A DNA stretch of 64,000 nt from Patescibacteria group bacterium. GTDB lineage: Bacteria; Patescibacteriota; Minisyncoccia; JACQLN01. Location of the stretch: the NCBI GenBank assembly GCA_038065095.1, contig JBBTRR010000001.1, forward strand, positions 113,546-177,545, in the 5' to 3' direction. The translations under genes and the position numbers were made by a program. Below are positions 33,635-62,213 of this stretch, piece after piece. Below the pieces are notes generated by a model that saw nothing but the letters and a program-made list of their open reading frames with translations, did no database searches and was not told the DNA's origin. The stretch's first letter is position 1; each line of letters starts with the position of its first letter.

Positions 33635-34987
33635 ATGACTATATTTATTTCTTGTTTTTTTAATTTAGTTGCGAGAAATGTTTTACATACAAAGTTTTTT
33701 GAATATTTAAAAAAAACGAAGGGTTACAGGATTATTTTACTTGTGCCTAAAATTAATGCTGATGCTTTTAAAAAAGAATTTTCTAATACTAACATAATTA
33801 TAGAATCAGTTCATTTTTTGCCTATGTCTAAAATTAATTTGTTATTTCACTGGTTGTCCTGGAACCTGCTCAATACTAAAAGTAAAAAAATTCATAAAAT
33901 AGTCCAGTTTGGAAAAGATTCTAATAGGCTTATGTATATGTTTACATCCTTTTTGGGTTGGTTGGGGGGATACAAAATAATCAGAAAAATCTTTAGAAAG
34001 CTAGATTATTGGTTGGTGCCCAGGGGTATGTTTGACTACTTATTTAACAAATATAAACCCGATATGGTTTTGGCCACAGATATACAGGATTTAAGGGTTC
34101 AAGAGCTATGTGATACATCGTTGGTCAGAGAGGCTAAAAGAAGGGGTATCTACAGTATGGGTATGGGTAGGTCTTGGGATAGTATGACCACCAAAGGCCT
34201 GTTAAGAACATTGCCAACTAAACTGGTTGTGCAGAGTGTTTCTATTAAGGATCAGGCTGTAAGGTATCACAGCGTTGACTCTGAACAGATTGTTGTAACT
34301 GGTACTTTGCATTACGATAAATATGTTTTAGATGAACGCACGTCTAGAGAAACTTTTTTTAGAGAACTAGGTTTTGACCCATCTAAAAAACTAATTCTTC
34401 TTACCATCCCTAGTGATATTTGGACAGGCAACGCTTCTCTTAGCCATTATTTGCTTAATATATTTTCTCAATTGAACGATCAAATAATTGTTCGTTTTCC
34501 ATTATTTGGTAAAGTTGATATTGGAGATTTTAAACCAGCTCAAACGATGGTTTTTGATAATCCATATAATTCTGATCGTTTGGAAGAATCTCGTTTAAGT
34601 ATAAGCGACGATGATCATTTGGCCGACTTAATATATCATAGTGATGTTGTTGTGACTGGCCCGTCGAGTATAATATTAGATGCGTCAATTTTTAATAAGC
34701 CGATAGTTTTGATAGGTTTTGATGGTGAAGAAGCTAGGCCATATGGGCAGAGTATGGCCAGATATTATGATTATGAACATCAACAATTAGCTATTTTATC
34801 GGGTGGAATGAAAGTAGCTAAAGATAGAGATCAATTAATAAATCTAGTTTTAGAATACCTAGCAAATCCAGATTTAGATAATAAAGGTCGTCGGCAAGTA
34901 GCAGAAAATATTTGTTTCAAACTAGATGGCCAATCGGGTTTGCGATTGGCTCAATTAATATGGAATACCTTAACCCCGAAGAAATAA
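33635..34987 (+). CDS. GT-B-fold transferase, paralog family member 1 of 4 (TagB/TagF-like CDP-polyol phosphotransferase motif resemblance)
   Basis: SWDSMTTKG mid-motif. C-terminal VVVTGPSSIILDASIFNKPIVLIGFDG resembles the TagF DYSSVxFDFxxLxKPxIFF pattern. VRFPLFG resembles the HP motif. Confidence 0.55.
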   Translation: MTIFISCFFNLVARNVLHTKFFEYLKKTKGYRIILLVPKINADAFKKEFSNTNIIIESVHFLPMSKINLLFHWLSWNLLNTKSKKIHKIVQFGKDSNRLMYMFTSFLGWLGGYKIIRKIFRKLDYWLVPRGMFDYLFNKYKPDMVLATDIQDLRVQELCDTSLVREAKRRGIYSMGMGRSWDSMTTKGLLRTLPTKLVVQSVSIKDQAVRYHSVDSEQIVVTGTLHYDKYVLDERTSRETFFRELGFDPSKKLILLTIPSDIWTGNASLSHYLLNIFSQLNDQIIVRFPLFGKVDIGDFKPAQTMVFDNPYNSDRLEESRLSISDDDHLADLIYHSDVVVTGPSSIILDASIFNKPIVLIGFDGEEARPYGQSMARYYDYEHQQLAILSGGMKVAKDRDQLINLVLEYLANPDLDNKGRRQVAENICFKLDGQSGLRLAQLIWNTLTPKK

Positions 34988-35718
34988 TAACCTCTAGAAA
35001 AAACATAAAAGAAAAACTAAGTAAATTTGTTGGTCCGACGATAAGACACAAATCTGGTATTAAGTTTTTTTCTAAATATGCAGATATTTTTTTAGTTCAG
35101 TACAATCATTTAAAAGAAGATATTAAGGTTCTTGATTGTGGAGTTGCTGGTGGAGGTTTCGCAAAAGATCTTTATGAGGCCGGCTATAAAAACATCTACG
35201 GTGTTGATATTGATGACTATTTATCTCCAGACAATAGACCTCTTATTAAAGAATTTAAAACTGCCGATTTAAGTTTCGATAAGATTCCTTGGCCAGATAG
35301 TTATTTTAAGGTTGTTACAGCTTGGTGTGTTTTACCGCATTTGGAGAATCCACATAACTTTATTAGAGAAACTTACAGAGTTCTTGAGCCGGGTGGTTTA
35401 TATATAATTTCTTTAGTCAATATAATTTCTTGGCCCAATAGAAAATATTTTATGATTCATAAAGAATTTCCTTCTTATCACGCTAGTAATAATCATATTA
35501 CACTTTTTACTCCGGCAATTTTTAAAAAGACCATTTTAAAATATTTTGATTTAGTAGGTACAGAGTATTTTATAACTCCAAGAATTTTTTATGGATTTAA
35601 AGGTAATATCAGAAAATATGTACTAAATTTTTTGTATTTTTTAAATAATTCACTCGGAGAATTACTATATGCACGTTGGGGCGCTAAGATAGTTTATATT
35701 TTAAAAAAGAAGAACTAG
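34960..35718 (+). CDS. Class I SAM-dependent methyltransferase; paralog of 32853-33608
   Basis: VLDCGVAGGGFAKDL, DLSFDKIPWPDSYFKVVTAWCVLPHLENPHNFIRETYRVLEPGGLYII. Start set at MEYLNPEE by alignment with the paralog's MQYFNPHE. Confidence 0.7.
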   Translation: MEYLNPEEIITSRKNIKEKLSKFVGPTIRHKSGIKFFSKYADIFLVQYNHLKEDIKVLDCGVAGGGFAKDLYEAGYKNIYGVDIDDYLSPDNRPLIKEFKTADLSFDKIPWPDSYFKVVTAWCVLPHLENPHNFIRETYRVLEPGGLYIISLVNIISWPNRKYFMIHKEFPSYHASNNHITLFTPAIFKKTILKYFDLVGTEYFITPRIFYGFKGNIRKYVLNFLYFLNNSLGELLYARWGAKIVYILKKKN

Positions 35719-35719
35719 C

Positions 35720-37174
35720 TTATTTTTTAATTATTTTATATATACTAACTTCTGGATTTTTATAAACTAATTCGAATTTATCTTTTTTATCAAAATTAGT
35801 TTTACTAAATTGTTTTTCCCATGGACCATAGTATATAAAATCGGCATCAATTTTTTCTAGATCAATAGGTATTTGGTCATAGTTTTTTATCAAATTAGTT
35901 ATATATTCTTTGGTTATATGTTTAGGATCGGCTAAATATTTGTTAATGGAACCTATTCGAAAATAATGGAAATAAAGATGCCAAAGATTTTTTCGTAGGT
36001 TTTGATCGGTATTAGGAGGACATAGTTCTTTGGAACAATCTATATTAAGAGTACCTGTTAATTGCTTTTCAATAGTCTCAGAATTAACATTAAAAATTTT
36101 GTTAGTTAATAAAAATCTTTTTTCTAATTCGTCGGTAGTTTTAGTGGTTAAATTGCCTAGTGGCAAAAAAGGCCGAGCCGATGTATAGGCGCCTAGGTAT
36201 AAAGAAGTCATAAACGAATTTGAGATTATTTTTGGTTCTGGTTTTAGATCTGCGTTAATCCATTCCCAAGATTCTTTTATGCTTTGTGAAAATTTATAAT
36301 TTTCCTGAATTCTAATTTCGGGATTATTTTTAATTACAAAGACATTAACTATTTTTTTTGATACAACCACTAAAGTTAGAATAACTAAGGTAATTGTTAC
36401 TATCTTTTTAACTTGTGAGCTTTTTATAGTAAATCTGGATGATAGTTCATAACAGATCATTCCAATTATTATAAATAAAAGAGGGCTGATGGTTCTTCTA
36501 AAATTATTAGGAGCAGGCACAAAACCTGTAATCAACTGGATATTCCAAATTAAGGTGGCAGATGTTAAAAAACTCCAAATGAGTATTGTTTTTAGACGGT
36601 CTTTATGCCAAAAAACTTTATAAGCTATTAATGCTAAGACTATATAAAAAATATAATCAAAGCCGAGTTCGGCAAGTCCTGGTTCTCTGCCTTCTGCTAT
36701 TCCGAGGCGATGCGTGTAGTCTGCTGATGCATTTGATTTAGAGAAGTTTAGGTAATTAATAAAATATGGAGTAGCAATTAATGTTAATGTTGCTATTAAT
36801 AAAATAAAATTTTTGAAACGAGCATTATTCCGGTGTTCGAAAATTAATGTATATAAAAAAAGTAGTGAAATTACTATTACCCAATAAACCCAATAATGAA
36901 AATAAAAATAAAATAATAATCCTGCTGGTATGGCGGCACCCAGGGCGTTTAGTTTGGTGGGTTTTTGCCAAAAATATATTAAGCCAGCGATAGCCAGAAT
37001 AAAAATAGGAAAGACAAATAATGGATAATCAAATCTGGCAAAGTAAAGTTTTTCTATTTGAGTATTTATTCCCGGAAAAAATTGTTTTACAAAATAGCCC
37101 AGAAACTCTCTAAAAGTTTCTTTTAGACCATCGGAACCTGTATCAGTAAAAATTTGTTGTAGTTTAAGCTCCAT
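35720..37174 (-). pseudogene. GT-C (ArnT/PMT-like) membrane glycosyltransferase, C-terminal ~485-aa part of a frameshift-split copy; paralog of 54110-55948
   Basis: YFARFDYPLFVFPIF...HYWVYWVIV and the C-terminal ADFIYYGPWEKQFSKTNFDKKDKFELVYKNPEVSIYKIIKK align to the intact paralog. It continues the 37164-37625 ORF in a different frame. Confidence 0.6.
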
Positions 37175-37625
37175 CAAAATTTAAAATTCTTAAAGCAATA
37201 GGCGTAAGAATTCCAATATATGCAAAAAGTAAAGACCAAATAAATGATCTATTAAACAAAATGCGACCCAGTAAGAAAAATAATAAAAATATTATTAAAG
37301 AAAATATAAATACCGCCGATAAATATGAAGTGACTACATTGCCATCAAACACAGTTAGAAAGGTAGTCATTATTAGCGAAGGGATAGCATTTAATACTGT
37401 TTTACCCTGATCATCAAAGTAAATATCTACGGGTGGCCAGTGTCCATCGTATATTTCTCTGGCTCGGTTCATATATATAAGTTCATCACGGTGTATTGCG
37501 TAATTAAGAACAAAGGGTTGTTCTTTTGCTTCAAATTGCTGTTTAATTACAAGAGGTGGCAGAATGTATAGAATTCCAACCAGAATAGATGATCCAGCAA
37601 TGACTAATATTTTTGCTAGTTTCAT
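37164..37625 (-). pseudogene. GT-C (ArnT/PMT-like) membrane glycosyltransferase, N-terminal 153-aa part of the split copy
   Basis: HRDELIYMNRAREIYDGHWPPVDIYF carries the DE loop-1 motif of GT-C enzymes. It overlaps the downstream part by 11 nt, out of frame. Confidence 0.6.
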
Positions 37626-37695
37626 TAGTTATAATATCTAAATTTACTTAGTATTTATAACAGAATTGCTAAAAATTGACAAGTAGTTTTCTATT

Positions 37696-38757
37696 ATGAA
37701 AATTTGCTATTTAAATAATGACCTAAATAATAAAACCGGTTCAGGTCGATTTTGTTTAGCTCTTGTACAATCATTGAATAAACTAATTCCTGCTTTTAAT
37801 TATAAGGTAGTAACCTTGGAGAGTATATCTTTAAAAAAGCCTTTTGGACTATTTTATTTTTTAATACGTTTAAGAAAAATACTAAAAGATTTTGATATTG
37901 TTCACGCTTTGGATGGCTGGCCCCATGGTTTTTTAGCTACATTGGCGACAATTGGATTAAAGAAAAAAGTGATTATAACTTTGATTGGAACTGGGTCAAT
38001 ACAACCAATGTATCATTTCCCTCATAAATTAATTATGAAGTGGGTTTATAAACGAGCCGATAGGTTGGTAGCTGTTAGTCAAAATACAAAAAAAGAAATC
38101 CTTAAAATTATTCCCAGTTTAAAAATTGAAGTTATAAATCATGGAGTAGACTTTGATAAATATCAAACATTAAATATTAAAAATAAAAATGATGCAGAAA
38201 TCCAGAGACTTAAACCTTATATTTTAAGCGTGGGAACATTAAAAAAAAGAAAGGGTTATGAATATTCCGTTCGGGCTTTTGCAGAAGTTGCAGAAAAATT
38301 TCCAGAATTAAAATATGTAATTGTAGGACAAGGCCATGAAGAAGAAAATCTCAAATCTCAAATCTCAAAACTAAAAATAGAAGATAAAATTATTTTTTTA
38401 AATTATTTGTCGGAGGAATTTTTGGTGGCTTTGTATCACAATGCTGAATTGTTTATTTTATTATCTCAAGATAATGGCAAAGACATAGAAGGTTTCGGTT
38501 TGGTTTTTTTGGAAGCTGCCTCTTGTGGTTTACCGATTGTAGCTACGTTAGAGACTGGAGCGGCAGATGCTGTTAGTGATGGTAAAAACGGTATATTGGT
38601 TCCAACAAGAGACAGTCATAAAGCTACTCAAGCTATAATTAAGATATTATTAAATTCCAATTTAAAAAATTCTTTTTCAGAATCGTCTTTAGAATTTGCT
38701 AAATCCATGAATTGGGAAAAGGTAGCTGATTCCTACTTTAAAATATATAAATTTTAA
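37696..38757 (+). CDS. GT4 family glycosyltransferase
   Basis: VGTLKKRKGYEY...VIVGQGHEEENLKSQISKLKI...EGFGLVFLEAASCGLPIVAT. Contains (AAATCTC)x3 at 38346-38366. Confidence 0.8.
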   Translation: MKICYLNNDLNNKTGSGRFCLALVQSLNKLIPAFNYKVVTLESISLKKPFGLFYFLIRLRKILKDFDIVHALDGWPHGFLATLATIGLKKKVIITLIGTGSIQPMYHFPHKLIMKWVYKRADRLVAVSQNTKKEILKIIPSLKIEVINHGVDFDKYQTLNIKNKNDAEIQRLKPYILSVGTLKKRKGYEYSVRAFAEVAEKFPELKYVIVGQGHEEENLKSQISKLKIEDKIIFLNYLSEEFLVALYHNAELFILLSQDNGKDIEGFGLVFLEAASCGLPIVATLETGAADAVSDGKNGILVPTRDSHKATQAIIKILLNSNLKNSFSESSLEFAKSMNWEKVADSYFKIYKF

Positions 38758-42663: not shown

Positions 42664-42670
42664 TTTGATT

Positions 42671-43606
42671 ATGATTAAAGAAATTGGTGATTATATAATA
42701 GTAAATTATCATTACGTTGAAGACACTAGGCTAGATTGGGGTGGTATTCACCCCTGTTCTGTAAAAGAATTTGAAAGGCAGGTTGATTTTTTATCTAAAA
42801 ATTTTGAAATTGTTTCTATGGGTCAGGTTTTTAATTCTGCAAAAAATGGATTAAGTGGAAAGTTTTGTGCCATTACTTTTGATGATGGGTTAAAAGGGCA
42901 ATATGAAAATGCTTTACCGATTTTACTTAACAATAAAGTTATCGGTACTTTTTTTCCAATAACCTCAACTTTTGAAGGTAGATTGCCGGCTACTCATAAA
43001 GTACATGCTTTGCTTTCGCATATATCTTCTTTAGAGCTTATTGATATTTTTCATAAATTTATTAAAGAATTTTATCCAGATATTGAGTCCACATATTTTA
43101 TCCCTAAAGATAAGCGTTTATTTGAACGAAGAAAACATGAAGATTTATTCACCGCTAATTTTAAAGAAACTATGATTAGCTTACCAGAAGATATAAAGGG
43201 CAGGTTTTTAAGATATTGTTTTAAAATGATGAAGCTTGATGAGAAAAAAATAAGCAAAGAAATTTTTATGAATAAAGACGATGTTGTAAATTTGTGTGGT
43301 CAAAAAATGGAAATAGGTAGCCATTCCCATGGGCATTATTCTATGTCGGCAGTTGGGGCAGAGTTTTTAAAAAAAGATATTCAACTCTCTAAAGATATTT
43401 TGTCTAACTTACTTAATAAAAATATTGATACTTTTTCTTATTCGCATGGTCATTACACGGATTTTGGTATAAAAGTATTAAAAGATATGGGGTTTAAGAA
43501 TGCTGTAACAATCGAACCTCGTTCTGTTACAAAAGAAGATAATGCTTTTTTGTTACCACGATATGATGCTAACGATATTAGGGATTTTATTAGTAATATT
43601 AACTAA
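42671..43606 (+). CDS. Polysaccharide deacetylase (NodB/CE4 family)
   Basis: CAITFDDGLKGQYENALPIL, HSHGHYSMS and YSHGHY. An alternative TTG start lies at 42665. Confidence 0.75.
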   Translation: MIKEIGDYIIVNYHYVEDTRLDWGGIHPCSVKEFERQVDFLSKNFEIVSMGQVFNSAKNGLSGKFCAITFDDGLKGQYENALPILLNNKVIGTFFPITSTFEGRLPATHKVHALLSHISSLELIDIFHKFIKEFYPDIESTYFIPKDKRLFERRKHEDLFTANFKETMISLPEDIKGRFLRYCFKMMKLDEKKISKEIFMNKDDVVNLCGQKMEIGSHSHGHYSMSAVGAEFLKKDIQLSKDILSNLLNKNIDTFSYSHGHYTDFGIKVLKDMGFKNAVTIEPRSVTKEDNAFLLPRYDANDIRDFISNIN

Positions 43607-45852: not shown

Positions 45853-46470
45853 ATGAATTTTTTCAATAAAAATATAATAGTTAATCATCATTACGTTGAA
45901 GACCCAAGCAAAAATTTAAAAGGGATACATCATTTTCCTATCGACGATTTCGATAAACATATAAGTTTTTTATCGAAAAATCTTAATGTTATTTCTATAC
46001 CAGAGGTTTACCAACCGGCCAATAAGGGAAGTTCCGAAAAGAGTTGTGTAATAACTTTTGATGATTGTTTAAAGGATTAGTGGGACAATGCTCTACCTAT
46101 TCTAGAAAAAAATAACGTCTTAGCTACTTTTATTTGTAAAAATTTGTTTATGTCTGAAAATCATGTTATTTCTTTATATAAAAGGGGTCATACTATAGGT
46201 GGTCATACCCATAAGCACGATGCTCTAGATTCTTTAGAGACTAGTGAGATTAAATCTGATGTTGTTTTAGGTAGAGATAAATTGTTAGAAATTCTAGGTT
46301 TTAAGCCCAACGTATTCTCTTATCCCCACGGCCGTTACAATAAGTCTATTTTAGAAGTTGTAGAAAAAGCAGGATTTACCTATGGTGTAACCACAGAAAG
46401 GAGGGGTTTAAACTCAAAAGAGAATCCAGTAGCTGTTCCAAGGTTTGATGCGACAGATTTGATTATATGA
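45853..46470 (+). pseudogene. Polysaccharide deacetylase paralog interrupted by a single in-frame TAG at 46078-46080
   Basis: VITFDDCLKD-TAG-WDNALPILEKNNVLATF aligns to AITFDDGLKGQYENALPILLNNKVIGTF of the intact paralog. The TAG replaces the Gln codon. The downstream half carries GGHTHKHD and YPHGRY. Confidence 0.6.
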
Positions 46471-53192: not shown

Positions 53193-54113
53193 ATGGAAAA
53201 AAATTCAACTAAGCTTATGATATCTGTTATATTTCCAACCTATAACGAAGAGGGTAATGTAGGAGAACTTCATAAATTAAATAAAGAAACTTTAGATAAA
53301 ATTGGTTTACCTTATGAAATAATAATCGTAGATAATGGATCTAAAGATAATACTCTCGCTATTTTAAAGGGGCTTTCTCCTATTAAAATTATATCTTTGA
53401 CCAAAAACTTTGGACAAACAGCTGCATTGGAAATTGGGATTAATTCTGCTAAGGGAGACATGATTGTAATTATGGATGGTGATATGCAAAATGATCCGCG
53501 CGATATTCCCAAGTTACTATCAAAATTAGAAGAAGGCTATGATGTTGTTTCGGGTTGGAGAAAAGATAGGCACGATAATTTTATTAGAAAGGCTCATTCA
53601 TATTTAGCTAACTGGCTTACCAGAAAAATTTCTGGCCTCAACCTTCGTGATCATGCTTGTGCTTTAAAAATTTATCGAAAAGAGTTTTTAAAACAAATAA
53701 GATTATACGGTGTTCAGCATGTTTTTCTAGCGGCTCAAGTTTATGGATTTGGTGCTCGCATTGCAGAAGTAGAAGTTGTACATCATGCTAGAAAACACGG
53801 TTTATCCAAGCATCATTTTTTTGCTGGTATTAAGGCCATAGCAGATTTAATAATGGTCAGATTTTTGTCTCCCGATACTAGACCTTTTGTTTTTTTTGCT
53901 GGTTGCGGTTTTTGGATATGGTTTTTAGGTATCGTAAATGCAGTATTGGGTGCTATCTATGGAAGCCGTGGTTTTATTATAGTCGCTCTGATTTTAACTG
54001 GTTTAGGCTTTCTTTTATTTGTTTTGGGGTTTATGTCGGAGCTTTTAAGAAGAATTTATCTTGAATTAAGATCAGAAAGGCCAATCTTGGTAAAAGAAAT
54101 AATTGAACAATGA
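53193..54113 (+). CDS. GT2 polyprenyl-phosphate sugar synthase (ArnC/DPM1/GtrB-like), paralog 2
   Basis: ISVIFPTYNEEGNV, IIIVDNGSKD, IVIMDGDMQNDP, and C-terminal TM helices. It overlaps the downstream GT-C by 4 nt. Confidence 0.8.
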   Translation: MEKNSTKLMISVIFPTYNEEGNVGELHKLNKETLDKIGLPYEIIIVDNGSKDNTLAILKGLSPIKIISLTKNFGQTAALEIGINSAKGDMIVIMDGDMQNDPRDIPKLLSKLEEGYDVVSGWRKDRHDNFIRKAHSYLANWLTRKISGLNLRDHACALKIYRKEFLKQIRLYGVQHVFLAAQVYGFGARIAEVEVVHHARKHGLSKHHFFAGIKAIADLIMVRFLSPDTRPFVFFAGCGFWIWFLGIVNAVLGAIYGSRGFIIVALILTGLGFLLFVLGFMSELLRRIYLELRSERPILVKEIIEQ

Positions 54114-55948
54114 ATTTAATTAAAAAGTACTGGCTCATTGTTATGTTGTTGGCTCTTTTAGTTGGTGTTTTATATATCGCACCCCAAATCATAATTAAAA
54201 TGAGAGTAGAGGGTTTGGGACATAAATTTATTTTATTTCAATTCATTGAGTTGGCTGACGGTGGCGATGCTTATTTTCAATTTGCTAGAGAGATTTATGA
54301 AGGTCATTTTCCTCCTGGAGATTTATTCTCTGACAAAAATTTACCGAATATTTATCCTTGGTTACCCCCGCTTTTTTTTGGTTTTTTAATTAAAATTCTT
54401 AAAGATATAAATTTAGCCTATATAGCTGCTAATTTTATTTTTCCAGCACTTTTTTTTACATTATTCTATTTTTTAGGGCAGGTTATTTTTAAAAAAAATA
54501 AATTATGGTCTTTATTTCTTGCTTTGGTGGCTGTCTTAACCCCGATGCCGCTTTTGGCAGACAGAATGTTTTTTAGTTTTAAATTATTTGGTGATATTTT
54601 TTTAAAAAATTTTTATCCTGAAGTTAAGACTATCTTGCCTACTCTTTACTTTTCTAGAGCTGATTATCCTCTTCTTACTCACATTTTTTATTTGCCAGCT
54701 ATAATCACTCTCTTTATTTTTTGGCGTAGACCTGGGTTTAAAACGGCGATGTTGGCTGGTTTTACAGGAGGATTATTAGCTTACGTTTATTTTCATAAGT
54801 GGGTATATTGGATGGTTGTGTTAGGTTTCCTTTTTTTATTATCTATATTTTTTCTAAAAAAAGAAACCAAAAGATTACAACTTTTTTTAGTTTTAGGTTT
54901 TACCACCATCTTAACTAGTATTCCTTATTTTATAAATTATTTTAGATTAGCCAGCTTCAATGGTTCTAAGGATTTAATACAAAGATTATCTCTTGAAGTG
55001 GGGAGGTCGGTAAATTTATCTGTTTGGCCTCAATATATAATTTATTTTTCTTTGGCGGTATTAGTTTATTTGATTTATTTTAAAAAAGATTTACCATTAA
55101 CCATTTTGTATTGGTCGTTTTTATTAGCAGCTTTTTTTGTTTGGAATATTCAGGTTATAATCGGTTTTGTTCCGCACTCCGATCACTGGCCAAGGGCAAT
55201 AAATCCCTTGATTTTTTTAGTTATTTTTGATTTGGCTTATAATTTAGTCCAAAGAATAATAAAGCGAGTGCCCACATTAAACAGGGTCTTTATTTTTAGC
55301 ATGGTTTTATTGATGGTTTTATTGGTCTTTAAAAAAACGATAAACGCAGTTAAATTTTTAGAAGTCCCAAATGATCAAATAATTTCTAACTATACACTAC
55401 CAGAGAGTGTTTTAGATTCTTATTCTTGGATTGAAAAAAACTATAGCGAACCTATTGTGATTTCGCCTTCTTTTATATCATCTATTTATCTTTCTGCTTT
55501 TACTTCTAGTCGTCCTTTTTTGCCATGGGGTGGCGTTAGTCCTATGTCTAATTACTCTTTAGAAGAGTTATTTTTGAAATCTAATAAGAATTTTTATATA
55601 CCAAAAAACATTTTTACAGAAAGGCTCGAGAAAAATGGTTTGCCGTGTACTAAAAAATGTAATTTGCTCTATGTTAATGCAAATTTTAAAGACACTAGAC
55701 TTTATTTATATCAACTTTATTTTATGGATAAAAATAATACGCAAAATAGAGATATTCCTGCATATAAAATCGAAGAATTATCTCAACGTTATGATAAACT
55801 AGAAACCAGTTGGAAAAAAACAGGGGCTGATTTGGTATATCTTGGTCCATGGGAGAATATTTTTAATGGTTCTATTTTAAAAAATGATAAAGATCTATCT
55901 CTTGTTTATTCTAATAAAGAAGTGGAGATTTATAAAATTATAAAATGA
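54110..55948 (+). CDS. GT-C fold membrane glycosyltransferase (ArnT/PMT-like; polyprenyl-P-sugar dependent), intact 612-aa copy
   Basis: About 12-13 TM helices. Loop-1 motif ADGGDAYFQFAREIYEGHFPPGD. C-terminal periplasmic domain. Translationally coupled to the upstream GT2. Confidence 0.65.
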   Translation: MNLIKKYWLIVMLLALLVGVLYIAPQIIIKMRVEGLGHKFILFQFIELADGGDAYFQFAREIYEGHFPPGDLFSDKNLPNIYPWLPPLFFGFLIKILKDINLAYIAANFIFPALFFTLFYFLGQVIFKKNKLWSLFLALVAVLTPMPLLADRMFFSFKLFGDIFLKNFYPEVKTILPTLYFSRADYPLLTHIFYLPAIITLFIFWRRPGFKTAMLAGFTGGLLAYVYFHKWVYWMVVLGFLFLLSIFFLKKETKRLQLFLVLGFTTILTSIPYFINYFRLASFNGSKDLIQRLSLEVGRSVNLSVWPQYIIYFSLAVLVYLIYFKKDLPLTILYWSFLLAAFFVWNIQVIIGFVPHSDHWPRAINPLIFLVIFDLAYNLVQRIIKRVPTLNRVFIFSMVLLMVLLVFKKTINAVKFLEVPNDQIISNYTLPESVLDSYSWIEKNYSEPIVISPSFISSIYLSAFTSSRPFLPWGGVSPMSNYSLEELFLKSNKNFYIPKNIFTERLEKNGLPCTKKCNLLYVNANFKDTRLYLYQLYFMDKNNTQNRDIPAYKIEELSQRYDKLETSWKKTGADLVYLGPWENIFNGSILKNDKDLSLVYSNKEVEIYKIIK

Positions 55949-60552: not shown

Positions 60553-61560
60553 ATGTCTAATAAAGTTTTTTCCTTGGCGCTCGTGGGTGCGGGTGGTATT
60601 GCTTATAAATGGGTCAAAGCTATCAGTAAAGTTAAAAATTGTTCTTTAAGGTTGGTAGTAGATGTGGATATAAATAAAGCAGAATTACTTTCTAAAAATT
60701 ATAAAAATTGTGAACATACAGATAAGTTAAATGATGTTTTATCAAGATTGGATATAGATGCTGTCATAGTAGCAGTGCCCAATAGTATATCTGCCAAGAT
60801 CTCTAGAGAAATTATTAAGTCGGGTAAACATGTTTTATGTGAAAAACCAGGCGCTGTTAATTCCAAAGAATTAAAATCCATTATTTTAGAGGCTAAAAAA
60901 TATAAGAAAAATTTTATGGTCGGGTTTAATCATAGATTCCATCCAGCCTTTTTACAGGCAAAAGAAATTTTTGATAAAGGTGAAATAGGTGAAGCTATGT
61001 TTATAAATTCTAGATATGGTTTTGGTGGTCGGGAAAACTATAATAAAGAATGGCGTTTTAATAAAAAAATAAGCGGGGGCGGAGAAATAATTGACCAAGG
61101 TGTTCATATGATTGATATGGCCCGTTTATTTTTAGGAGAATTTAATGAAGTTAAGGCTTATACGCCTAATCTTTTTTGGGGTGGAAATGTGGAAGATAAT
61201 GGTTTTATACTTTTAAAAACCATAAAAAAACAAATAGCTGCAATTCATGTTAGCTGGACTAATTGGAAATGGATTCATTCTTTTGAAATTATGGGTACAT
61301 TAGGCTATTTACGTATAGATGGTTTGGATCAGCGTTATAACGGGCCGGAGAAATTAACTATAGGATATCGTGATCTTTTATTTAAAAAATCTCCACAAGA
61401 AAAAGTTATAATATTTAAAAACGAAAAACCCGAAGATTCTTTCACTAGACAGTTAAAAGAATTTTTATCTGCTATAAGTGAAGATAGAAATTCTGTTCCA
61501 GATAGTCGTGATGCTTACGAAGTTTTAAAAATAGTTGATAAAATTTATGAAAAAAAATAA
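60553..61560 (+). CDS. Gfo/Idh/MocA-family NAD(P)-dependent sugar oxidoreductase
   Basis: LALVGAGGIAYKWV Rossmann, and the family's HVLCEKP motif. Confidence 0.8.
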   Translation: MSNKVFSLALVGAGGIAYKWVKAISKVKNCSLRLVVDVDINKAELLSKNYKNCEHTDKLNDVLSRLDIDAVIVAVPNSISAKISREIIKSGKHVLCEKPGAVNSKELKSIILEAKKYKKNFMVGFNHRFHPAFLQAKEIFDKGEIGEAMFINSRYGFGGRENYNKEWRFNKKISGGGEIIDQGVHMIDMARLFLGEFNEVKAYTPNLFWGGNVEDNGFILLKTIKKQIAAIHVSWTNWKWIHSFEIMGTLGYLRIDGLDQRYNGPEKLTIGYRDLLFKKSPQEKVIIFKNEKPEDSFTRQLKEFLSAISEDRNSVPDSRDAYEVLKIVDKIYEKK

Positions 61561-61987
61561 AGGATTGGTTTTGGTTCTTGGTGGAGCTGGCTTTATAGGA
61601 TCTCATTTAGTAGACGCATTACTTAAAGATAATTATAGAGTTAGAGTATTAGACAACCTAGCCCCACCTACCCATAACGGCAAATTGCCCTCTTGGTTTA
61701 ACAAAAAAGCAGAATTTGTTAAAGGGGATGTTCGTAAGAGACAAGACTTGATTCGTGCTATGGTTGGGGTTGATTTTATTTTTCACTTGGCAGCCTATCG
61801 GATTAATATACCTAGACATCAAAGTATGGACATTTCAAAATTGAAATCATTAGGTTGGGCGCCCAATCATTTTATCGAAGAAAATGTTTCGGAGTATGTT
61901 GACTGGGTAAGGTCATTTCCTGAAGCAAAAGCTTTTTTTAAAAAAAGCCAAGTATCGATGGGGAAAAAGGGTATAATTAAGGTATAA
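61547..61987 (+). pseudogene. Internally deleted NAD-dependent epimerase/dehydratase remnant
   Basis: Has the N-terminal LVLGGAGFIGSHLV and a C-terminal tail (LKSLGWAP...), but lacks the catalytic S...YxxxK core. It is about 147 aa against an expected ~310. Confidence 0.5.
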
Positions 61988-62054
61988 AGGCTGATATATT
62001 GTAGCTTAAAACCCAGCAGGGTATTTCCTTATTACACTTGAAAACTATAGAACC

Positions 62055-62213
62055 ATGAAAGCTGATTGGTCACAAACTAATTCTAGCTTTGTTTATTATG
62101 GTCCTTGGGAGAAACAGTTTAGCCAAGTAAATTTTTCTAAAGATTCTAGATTAGAATTAATTTATAAAAATTCTTTAGTCGAAATTTTTAAGATTAAAAG
62201 TGACACTTTGTAA
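62055..62213 (+). pseudogene. C-terminal remnant (52 aa) of a third GT-C paralog
   Basis: SFVYYGPWEKQFSQVNFSKDSRLELIYKNSLVEIFKIK matches the C-termini of 35720-37174 (ADFIYYGPWEKQFSKTNFDKKDKFELVYKNPEVSIYKI) and 54110-55948. Stops lie in frame upstream. Confidence 0.6.

Follow-up and report, generated by a model that had tools for sequence, protein, structure and literature searches.

Two overlapping, conserved genes very probably encode one GT-C-fold membrane glycosyltransferase in a Patescibacteria surface-glycan locus

Alg13 and Alg14 form a bipartite UDP-GlcNAc transferase, in which two polypeptides make one enzyme whose single-chain bacterial counterpart is MurG-like. Here we analyze a 64,000-nucleotide stretch of a Patescibacteria contig (JBBTRR010000001.1, positions 113,546 to 177,545; hereafter the window) in which a protein of the GT-C glycosyltransferase type is specified by two open reading frames (ORFs), a small upstream ORF and a large downstream ORF, lying in different frames and overlapping at their junction. 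A first-pass annotation of the window had read this pair as one gene split by a frameshift. Our analyses indicate that it very probably encodes one GT-C-fold membrane glycosyltransferase from two separate, co-transcribed, overlapping genes, the product of a single ancient fission. Alg13/Alg14 differs in having a GT-B fold, a soluble plus a membrane-anchored subunit, a nucleotide-sugar donor and genes that are not overlapping cistrons. The structural matches of the protein described here, of the PglB/STT3/AglB, AftA, PMT and ArnT types, are all single-chain, and the GT-C enzymes concerned (oligosaccharyltransferases, PMTs, ArnT and the mycobacterial arabinosyltransferases) each consist of one polypeptide chain, whereas here there would be two.

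Multicomponent transmembrane glycosylation systems include GtrA/GtrB/GtrC, CsbB–GtcA–YfhO and GtlA–GtcA–GtlB (PMC8035078, PMC5836110). The window and its relatives resemble systems of the GtrA/GtrB/GtrC type in three respects: an ArnC/CsbB-like GT2 glycosyltransferase gene lies by a second, single-chain GT-C gene of the window (the single-chain paralog), GT2 fusions occur among family members (P0051, P0064 and P0067), and some relatives have GtrA joined to the small subunit. The TagF-like, teichoic-acid-type conserved neighbors can be listed with these likenesses. However, no relation of the family to YfhO, GtrC or GtlB could be detected by sequence, and here the GT-C component is split. A limited search of the searchable literature returned no split GT-C enzyme and nothing relevant on GT-C enzymes in Patescibacteria.

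In BLASTP comparisons with the 612-aa single-chain paralog, the small ORF matched residues 9 to 148 (35% identity, E = 2e-23) and the large ORF matched residues 150 to 612 (36% identity, E = 3e-91). The two hits, much too strong to be coincidental, abut at the junction, and thus the ORFs are collinear halves of one protein type, in agreement with the end-to-end alignment of 153-aa and 485-aa ORFs claimed in the first-pass annotation. The frame of the large ORF is +1 relative to that of the small ORF, whose TAA stop is positioned 8 nt after the large-ORF ATG. Counted from this ATG the overlap is 11 nt, ATGGAGCTTAA, as had been stated; counted from an alternative TTG start, from which the large ORF spans 35720–37177 on the minus strand and encodes 485 aa, it is 14 nt. 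Gene callers in independent assemblies annotate the 484-aa form with the ATG start. The small subunit ends in a near-invariant C-terminal tail, LTPIALRILNFDGA, followed by the TAA. The stretch around the junction is AT-rich, as also noted previously, but it is not rich in homopolymers: runs are at most 4 bases long and vary among relatives.

To examine the split in other organisms, we searched with each form of the protein. The joined 635-aa query returned about 36 proteins of 440–498 aa that match only its C-terminal 76%, with identities of the large-subunit homologs running from 100, 86, 82, 80, 79 and 58% down to 38%; single-chain forms (580–650 aa) reached at most about 42% identity to the joined query. 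The 153-aa query returned 35 proteins with 46–100% identity, all of 149–178 aa except for one 101-aa fragment. Loci were then fetched, 11 from species-representative genomes and 15 from metagenomes; one of the contigs (L028) begins inside the large ORF, with its junction off the contig. In each of the 25 fetched loci with both halves readable, the small ORF directly precedes the large ORF, which is in the +1 frame. This architecture is found at 22 distinct junctions, in relatives down to ∼38–45% identity, and in the complete loci both ORFs are intact, with no internal stops in either half. The orthologous loci thus carry two genuinely separate genes, which refutes the earlier reading of a copy broken by a frameshift. 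Relative to the closest relative, L010, the ratios of nonsynonymous to synonymous substitution rates (dN/dS; Nei–Gojobori) are 0.085 (small gene) and 0.095 (large gene), and dS exceeds 1; in more distant pairs the synonymous sites are saturated and the protein is still conserved. Both halves are under purifying selection. The split pair is held across a clade of groundwater Patescibacteria.

A neighbor-joining tree built on the region common to all forms placed the 36 split-type proteins in one clade nested among single-chain forms, with bootstrap support of 97/100 when four very distant sequences were left out. From this nesting we infer one ancient gene fission, which would have become fixed in a Parcubacteria/Patescibacteria lineage.

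Pfam and NCBIfam contained no match for the small half, the large half or the intact paralog, and the family profile found nothing significant among PDB sequences (best E = 0.28, unrelated). An AlphaFold2 model of the joined halves, calculated from a 61-sequence alignment, has a mean predicted local distance difference test score of 92.4 and a predicted template modeling score of 0.92, and its sole low-confidence stretch, residues 148 to 164, is the junction. The model and its fold matches show a multipass membrane core with the GT-C helix arrangement, and the predicted fold is GT-C. The GT-C assignment of the first-pass annotation therefore stands at the level of the fold and has no Pfam, NCBIfam or PDB sequence family match behind it. 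The family comprises 362 cluster representatives at 50% identity (E up to 1e-3) and represents an unannotated GT-C family in cell-surface glycan loci of Patescibacteria.

The short loops of the protein alternate between means of 2–4 and about 0.1 K/R residues, consistent with an 11-transmembrane (TM)-helix topology with the N terminus inside and the C terminus outside. Helix positions and the positive-inside rule place the junction, by prediction, in the second outer loop. The small subunit would thus hold TM1, the first extracytoplasmic loop, TM2 and TM3, and the large subunit the remainder of the second outer loop, followed by eight TM helices and a C-terminal, globular outer domain of ∼200 aa resembling that of oligosaccharyltransferases. 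E57 and D60 are invariant in 34 small-subunit sequences, in which position 47 or 48 is always acidic as well. These residues, candidate equivalents of the catalytic Asp of PglB or ArnT, probably lie in the first extracytoplasmic loop. The large subunit contains an invariant R-x-D-Y-P segment, which would belong to the second outer loop, and a W-N-x-Q-x-x-x-G loop. By-eye comparison recognized no WWDxG-type motif of the kind found in oligosaccharyltransferases; the conserved C-terminal motif here is YYGPWE. A natural split that is stable over such deep divergence marks a permissive break point in the putative second outer loop of a GT-C enzyme and puts the invariant first-loop acidic residues on a separate 17-kDa subunit, which would make the split enzyme a ready-made system for studying membrane assembly of the GT-C fold.

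The start of the large gene is conserved across these junctions. A +1-frame ATG is present in 20 of the 22, overlapping the small-gene stop by either 11 nt (ATGGnGCnTAA type) or 14 nt (ATGGyACyGyyTrA type). Its AT comes from a GAT, CAT, AAT or TAT codon of the small gene; hence, the encoded residue varies (D, H, N or Y) and the third base is T, and NAT makes up just 39–79% of such codons in these genomes. No Shine–Dalgarno motif precedes the large-gene ATG, but this is uninformative because only about 7 of 43 gene starts in the window have a GGAG-like motif. Most leaders are A/T-rich, which suggests that initiation in the source organism is mainly independent of Shine–Dalgarno pairing.

The short overlap makes termination–reinitiation coupling the most economical mechanism for expression of the pair. 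Ribosomes ending the small subunit at its TAA would probably reinitiate at the ATG 8 nt upstream, and such coupling would yield roughly equal amounts of both chains, which are expected to assemble in the membrane and form a composite active site. By analogy with systems in which a GT2 enzyme is combined with a flippase of the GtrA type and a GT-C component, the complex probably moves a sugar from a polyprenyl-phosphate carrier to a surface polymer outside the cell. The acceptor may be a glycerol-phosphate (teichoic-acid-like) polymer.

Several points weigh against this interpretation. The naive joint probability of the ATG having been kept, about 3e-5, ignores shared ancestry. Two sister sequences, L013 and L022, have no ATG: their host codon is GAC, which gives ACG, and the start hangs on a TTG one codon upstream. 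Since the ACG form occurs in two different sequences, it is not a read error. The uniform +1 relation also fits a conserved +1 frameshift, which is excluded by argument and not by experiment. When the four very distant sequences were included in the tree, some distances were undefined, and the bootstrap value of the split clade in this numerically unstable analysis was 62/100. The structural model was predicted for an artificial fusion rather than a two-chain complex, and the position of the junction outside the cell is drawn from the helix pattern and the positive-inside rule. Finally, the two polypeptides, their assembly and their activity are read from DNA and prediction, not from protein or transcript. 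As a separate observation, the upstream TTG is the sole candidate start in L013 (1216–1232) and L022 (1691–1707).

In programmed +1 frameshifting of the prfB type, two ORFs stand in a 0/+1 relation with a stop at the switch point. The first-pass annotation had listed a programmed frameshift among its possibilities. A +1 shift at the end of the small ORF, producing a single fused GT-C enzyme of ∼635 aa throughout the clade, seems improbable to us. It would account for the +1 relation and short overlap shared by all 22 distinct junctions, for the folding of the joined sequence as one confident GT-C model and for a 180-nt insert in L012 and L033 that is open in the +1 frame. However, a conserved frame relation is equally expected of an inherited overlap, and neither a slippery site nor a particular stop codon or its context is common to the 22 junctions. 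The last sense codon of the small gene is GCT, GCC or GTC, which in the +1 frame become CTT, CCT and TCT, so that re-pairing is barred; all three stops (TAA, TAG and TGA) occur, followed by A, T or C. Unlike prfB-type sites, the junctions have no CUU-UGA-C-like sequence and no conserved Shine–Dalgarno-like stimulator, and the large gene has its own conserved start codon. No slippery or transcriptional-slippage motif was found at the junctions, whose short homopolymer runs are unconserved. An Rfam scan of 35500–37900 gave no match, and a promoter and terminator scan around the junction yielded counts no higher than in shuffled sequence, with none at the junction itself. In addition, the ATG, unneeded for frameshifting, is kept across four host amino acids, and in L023 a stop codon immediately precedes it. 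Thus, the conserved in-frame ATG and the lack of a conserved shift site disfavor programmed frameshifting.

The insert in L012 (3826–4008; the same in L033, about 2326–2508) is a near-perfect hairpin of ∼180 nt between the small-gene stop and the conserved large-gene start. Its predicted RNA fold has an energy of −104 kcal/mol (z = −12), it carries 21-nt terminal inverted repeats, AACCATCCCCAAAATACCTCC and GGAGGTATTTTGGGGATGGTT, and it is open in the large-gene frame, with its right end giving GGAGG 10 nt ahead of a second ATG. This element looks like a miniature inverted-repeat transposable element.

A family profile search over 1.84 billion representatives found the small-subunit domain at the C terminus of longer proteins as well. 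In P0122 (330 aa) it comes after a GtrA/DPMS TM domain (PF04138, E = 1.5e-16), and in P0120 (615 aa) after a TagF-like domain (weak match to PF04464, E = 9e-4); the two proteins share the usual ...LNF-x-G-T-A terminus. The GtrA fusion, represented by three distinct sequences, is a continuous ORF in L019 (2968–3999, equal to P0122), L030/L032 (1504–2499) and L035 (540–1535), with GtrA parts 60–62% identical in L030/L032 and L035. The TagF-like fusion is a continuous ORF in L020 (2119–3999; PF04464, E = 5.9e-5; 77% identical to P0120). In all the fusion loci the small subunit stops at its customary position and the large gene still begins at the overlapping ATG; the small-subunit boundary is a genuine protein terminus. 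A non-exhaustive scan of window ORFs, including those beside the split pair, detected no GtrA.

These fusions bear on a further alternative, that the two genes are real and no longer cooperate, with the large subunit working on its own or with some other partner and the small protein serving a different role. Fusion of the small subunit to GtrA or TagF-like partners in some lineages would suit such a scheme, as would the fact that the two-chain assembly is deduced. However, adjacency and overlap are kept in every locus examined, the invariant first-loop acidic residues are in the small subunit alone, the joined model is compact and confident, and the halves evolve at similar rates; we regard a loss of cooperation as quite unlikely.

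Together with one enzyme made from two chains, the fusions raise the tentative possibility, which we would not yet favor, that the small subunit is a detachable catalytic and donor-binding module (TM1, the first outer loop and TM2–3) and that the split permits its coupling to a putative GtrA flippase or a TagF-like polymerase. If this were so, the GT-C active site would be permanently wired to the delivery of lipid-linked sugar or to polymer synthesis, and nature would have performed an experiment in which GtrA passes its cargo straight to a GT-C enzyme. The GT-C fold would then be buildable from separately inserted pieces, and the N-terminal tail of the large subunit, ∼45 residues long, would be exported without a signal peptide. 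We know of no direct evidence for contact between flippase and GT-C enzyme in the three-component glycosylation systems; the GtrA–small-subunit fusions constitute genomic evidence for physical contact between the putative flippase and the GT-C enzyme and are the most promising lead from this work.

Short proteins of 133–190 aa that lie outside the split clade also match the small-subunit profile (E = 1e-34 to 1e-8): P0139, P0144, P0147, P0163, P0164, P0185, P0187, P0193, P0196 and P0199. These may represent pieces cut off at contig ends, or else fissions that arose independently in other clades.

The first-pass annotation had also offered a decaying pseudogene, and had seen a birth-and-death dynamic among the GT-C paralogs. 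A recently frameshifted, decaying copy would explain two frames collinear with an intact paralog, and the island does contain a genuine relic of another family copy. However, each half has a dN/dS of about 0.09, synonymous sites are saturated and 22 junctions share the split, which excludes a pseudogene; nor does any complete locus have an internal stop in either half. The split forms are monophyletic, and the intact paralog is just 35–36% identical and belongs to another clade, apart from the split forms, where it groups with P0066 and P0068. This grouping shows that the two copies in the window are ancient paralogs and not the outcome of recent duplication and decay. Indeed, split and single-chain copies share one contig in other genomes (P0018/P0066, P0013/P0068 and P0020/P0023). 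A decaying pseudogene is accordingly very improbable, and annotation of two genes is appropriate where pipelines and pseudogene finders will flag the pair as frameshifted.

Of the proposed birth-and-death dynamic, for which we find weak support, what holds is the decay of the remnant; the split and intact copies are co-occurring paralogs of long standing. The remnant had been noted as a 52-aa ORF (62055–62213), and this is borne out: it matches the last ∼53 residues of the family and retains the conserved YYGPWEKQF motif. In tblastn, it was 49% identical to residues 429–481 of the large subunit (E = 6e-13) and 38% identical to the paralog, and by sequence is nearer to the split-clade type than to the single-chain paralog.

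Directly upstream of this relic, at 61535–61987, lies a 150-aa ORF encoding the Rossmann portion from the N terminus of an NAD-dependent sugar epimerase/dehydratase; it matches only positions 1–85 of the corresponding model. By eye, the ORF continues into what appears to be the extreme C-terminal motif of such enzymes, and if that motif holds it looks like an internally deleted epimerase/dehydratase gene. These two adjoining relics account for all the true decay in the island.

The exact 153-aa protein is recorded on 23 contigs. Nine of these were fetched, from Hainich groundwater ENA assemblies and from Logan assemblies of ERR3858xxx, ERR3654040 and SRR32696xxx, and in all nine, which come from different runs, projects and assemblers, the junction is base-identical to the window. 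Eight are 100% identical to the window across the aligned region; the ninth, L001 (ERZ1286166 contig_4659, a 6.5-kb locus), differs from the window by 8 single-base gaps and has an intact junction. One intact gene disrupted by a single-base sequencing or assembly error, a further suggestion of the first-pass annotation to which the AT-rich junction region lends itself, is excluded by the identity of the junction in nine independently assembled contigs, and with the indels of L001 lying elsewhere, homopolymer runs so short and the split recurring in divergent species with GC contents of 32–61%, its probability is negligible. L001 is itself an example of genuine assembly frameshifts, all away from the junction: its gaps split the UDP-glucose dehydrogenase gene into four ORFs and the GT4 gene into two, and the large GT-C gene is present as fragments only.

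Between about 26 and 64 kb, the window is occupied by a surface-glycan locus that encodes several GT4 and GT2 enzymes, three TagF-like proteins, a UDP-glucose dehydrogenase, epimerases, methyltransferases and deacetylases (features discussed here are collected in Table 1). A TagF-like gene, the methyltransferase and the GT4 accompany the split pair in most relatives, in shuffled order. The ArnC/PgfS-like GT2 gene runs 4 nt into the beginning of the single-chain paralog and in the window is not adjacent to the split pair, whereas in L011 a 52%-identical homolog adjoins the pair. It matches positions 8–313 of 316 of the NCBIfam ArnC model (E = 5e-47), below the equivalog cut-off, and is likely to be a polyprenyl-phosphate sugar synthase, the maker of the lipid-linked donor.

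Table 1. Positions of the split pair, its paralogs and neighboring genes in the window
Feature	Coordinates	Strand	Basis and remarks
TagF-like CDP-glycerol glycerophosphotransferase	33635..34987	plus	Pfam PF04464; homolog near split pair in most relatives
S-adenosylmethionine-dependent methyltransferase	34912..35718	plus	Synteny; conserved neighbor of split pair
Large subunit gene (C-part)	35720..37174	minus	Homologs, model and fold matches; 484 aa, ATG at 37172-37174
Out-of-frame overlap	37164..37174	minus	ATGGAGCTTAA; 11 nt; large-subunit start within final four codons of small subunit
Small subunit gene (N-part)	37164..37625	minus	ORF call and homologs; 153 aa
GT4 glycosyltransferase	37696..38757	plus	Synteny; divergently transcribed conserved neighbor
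ArnC/PgfS-like membrane GT2	53193..54113	plus	Pfam PF00535; NCBIfam ArnC model
Single-chain GT-C paralog	54110..55948	plus	BLASTP, tree; 612 aa
Relic of third family copy	62037..62213	plus	tblastn; last ∼53 residues

Elsewhere in the island, a 108-aa ORF at 46144–46470 matches only positions 51–123 of the 124 positions of the polysaccharide deacetylase domain and may be another truncated gene; a full-length deacetylase is encoded at 42665–43606.
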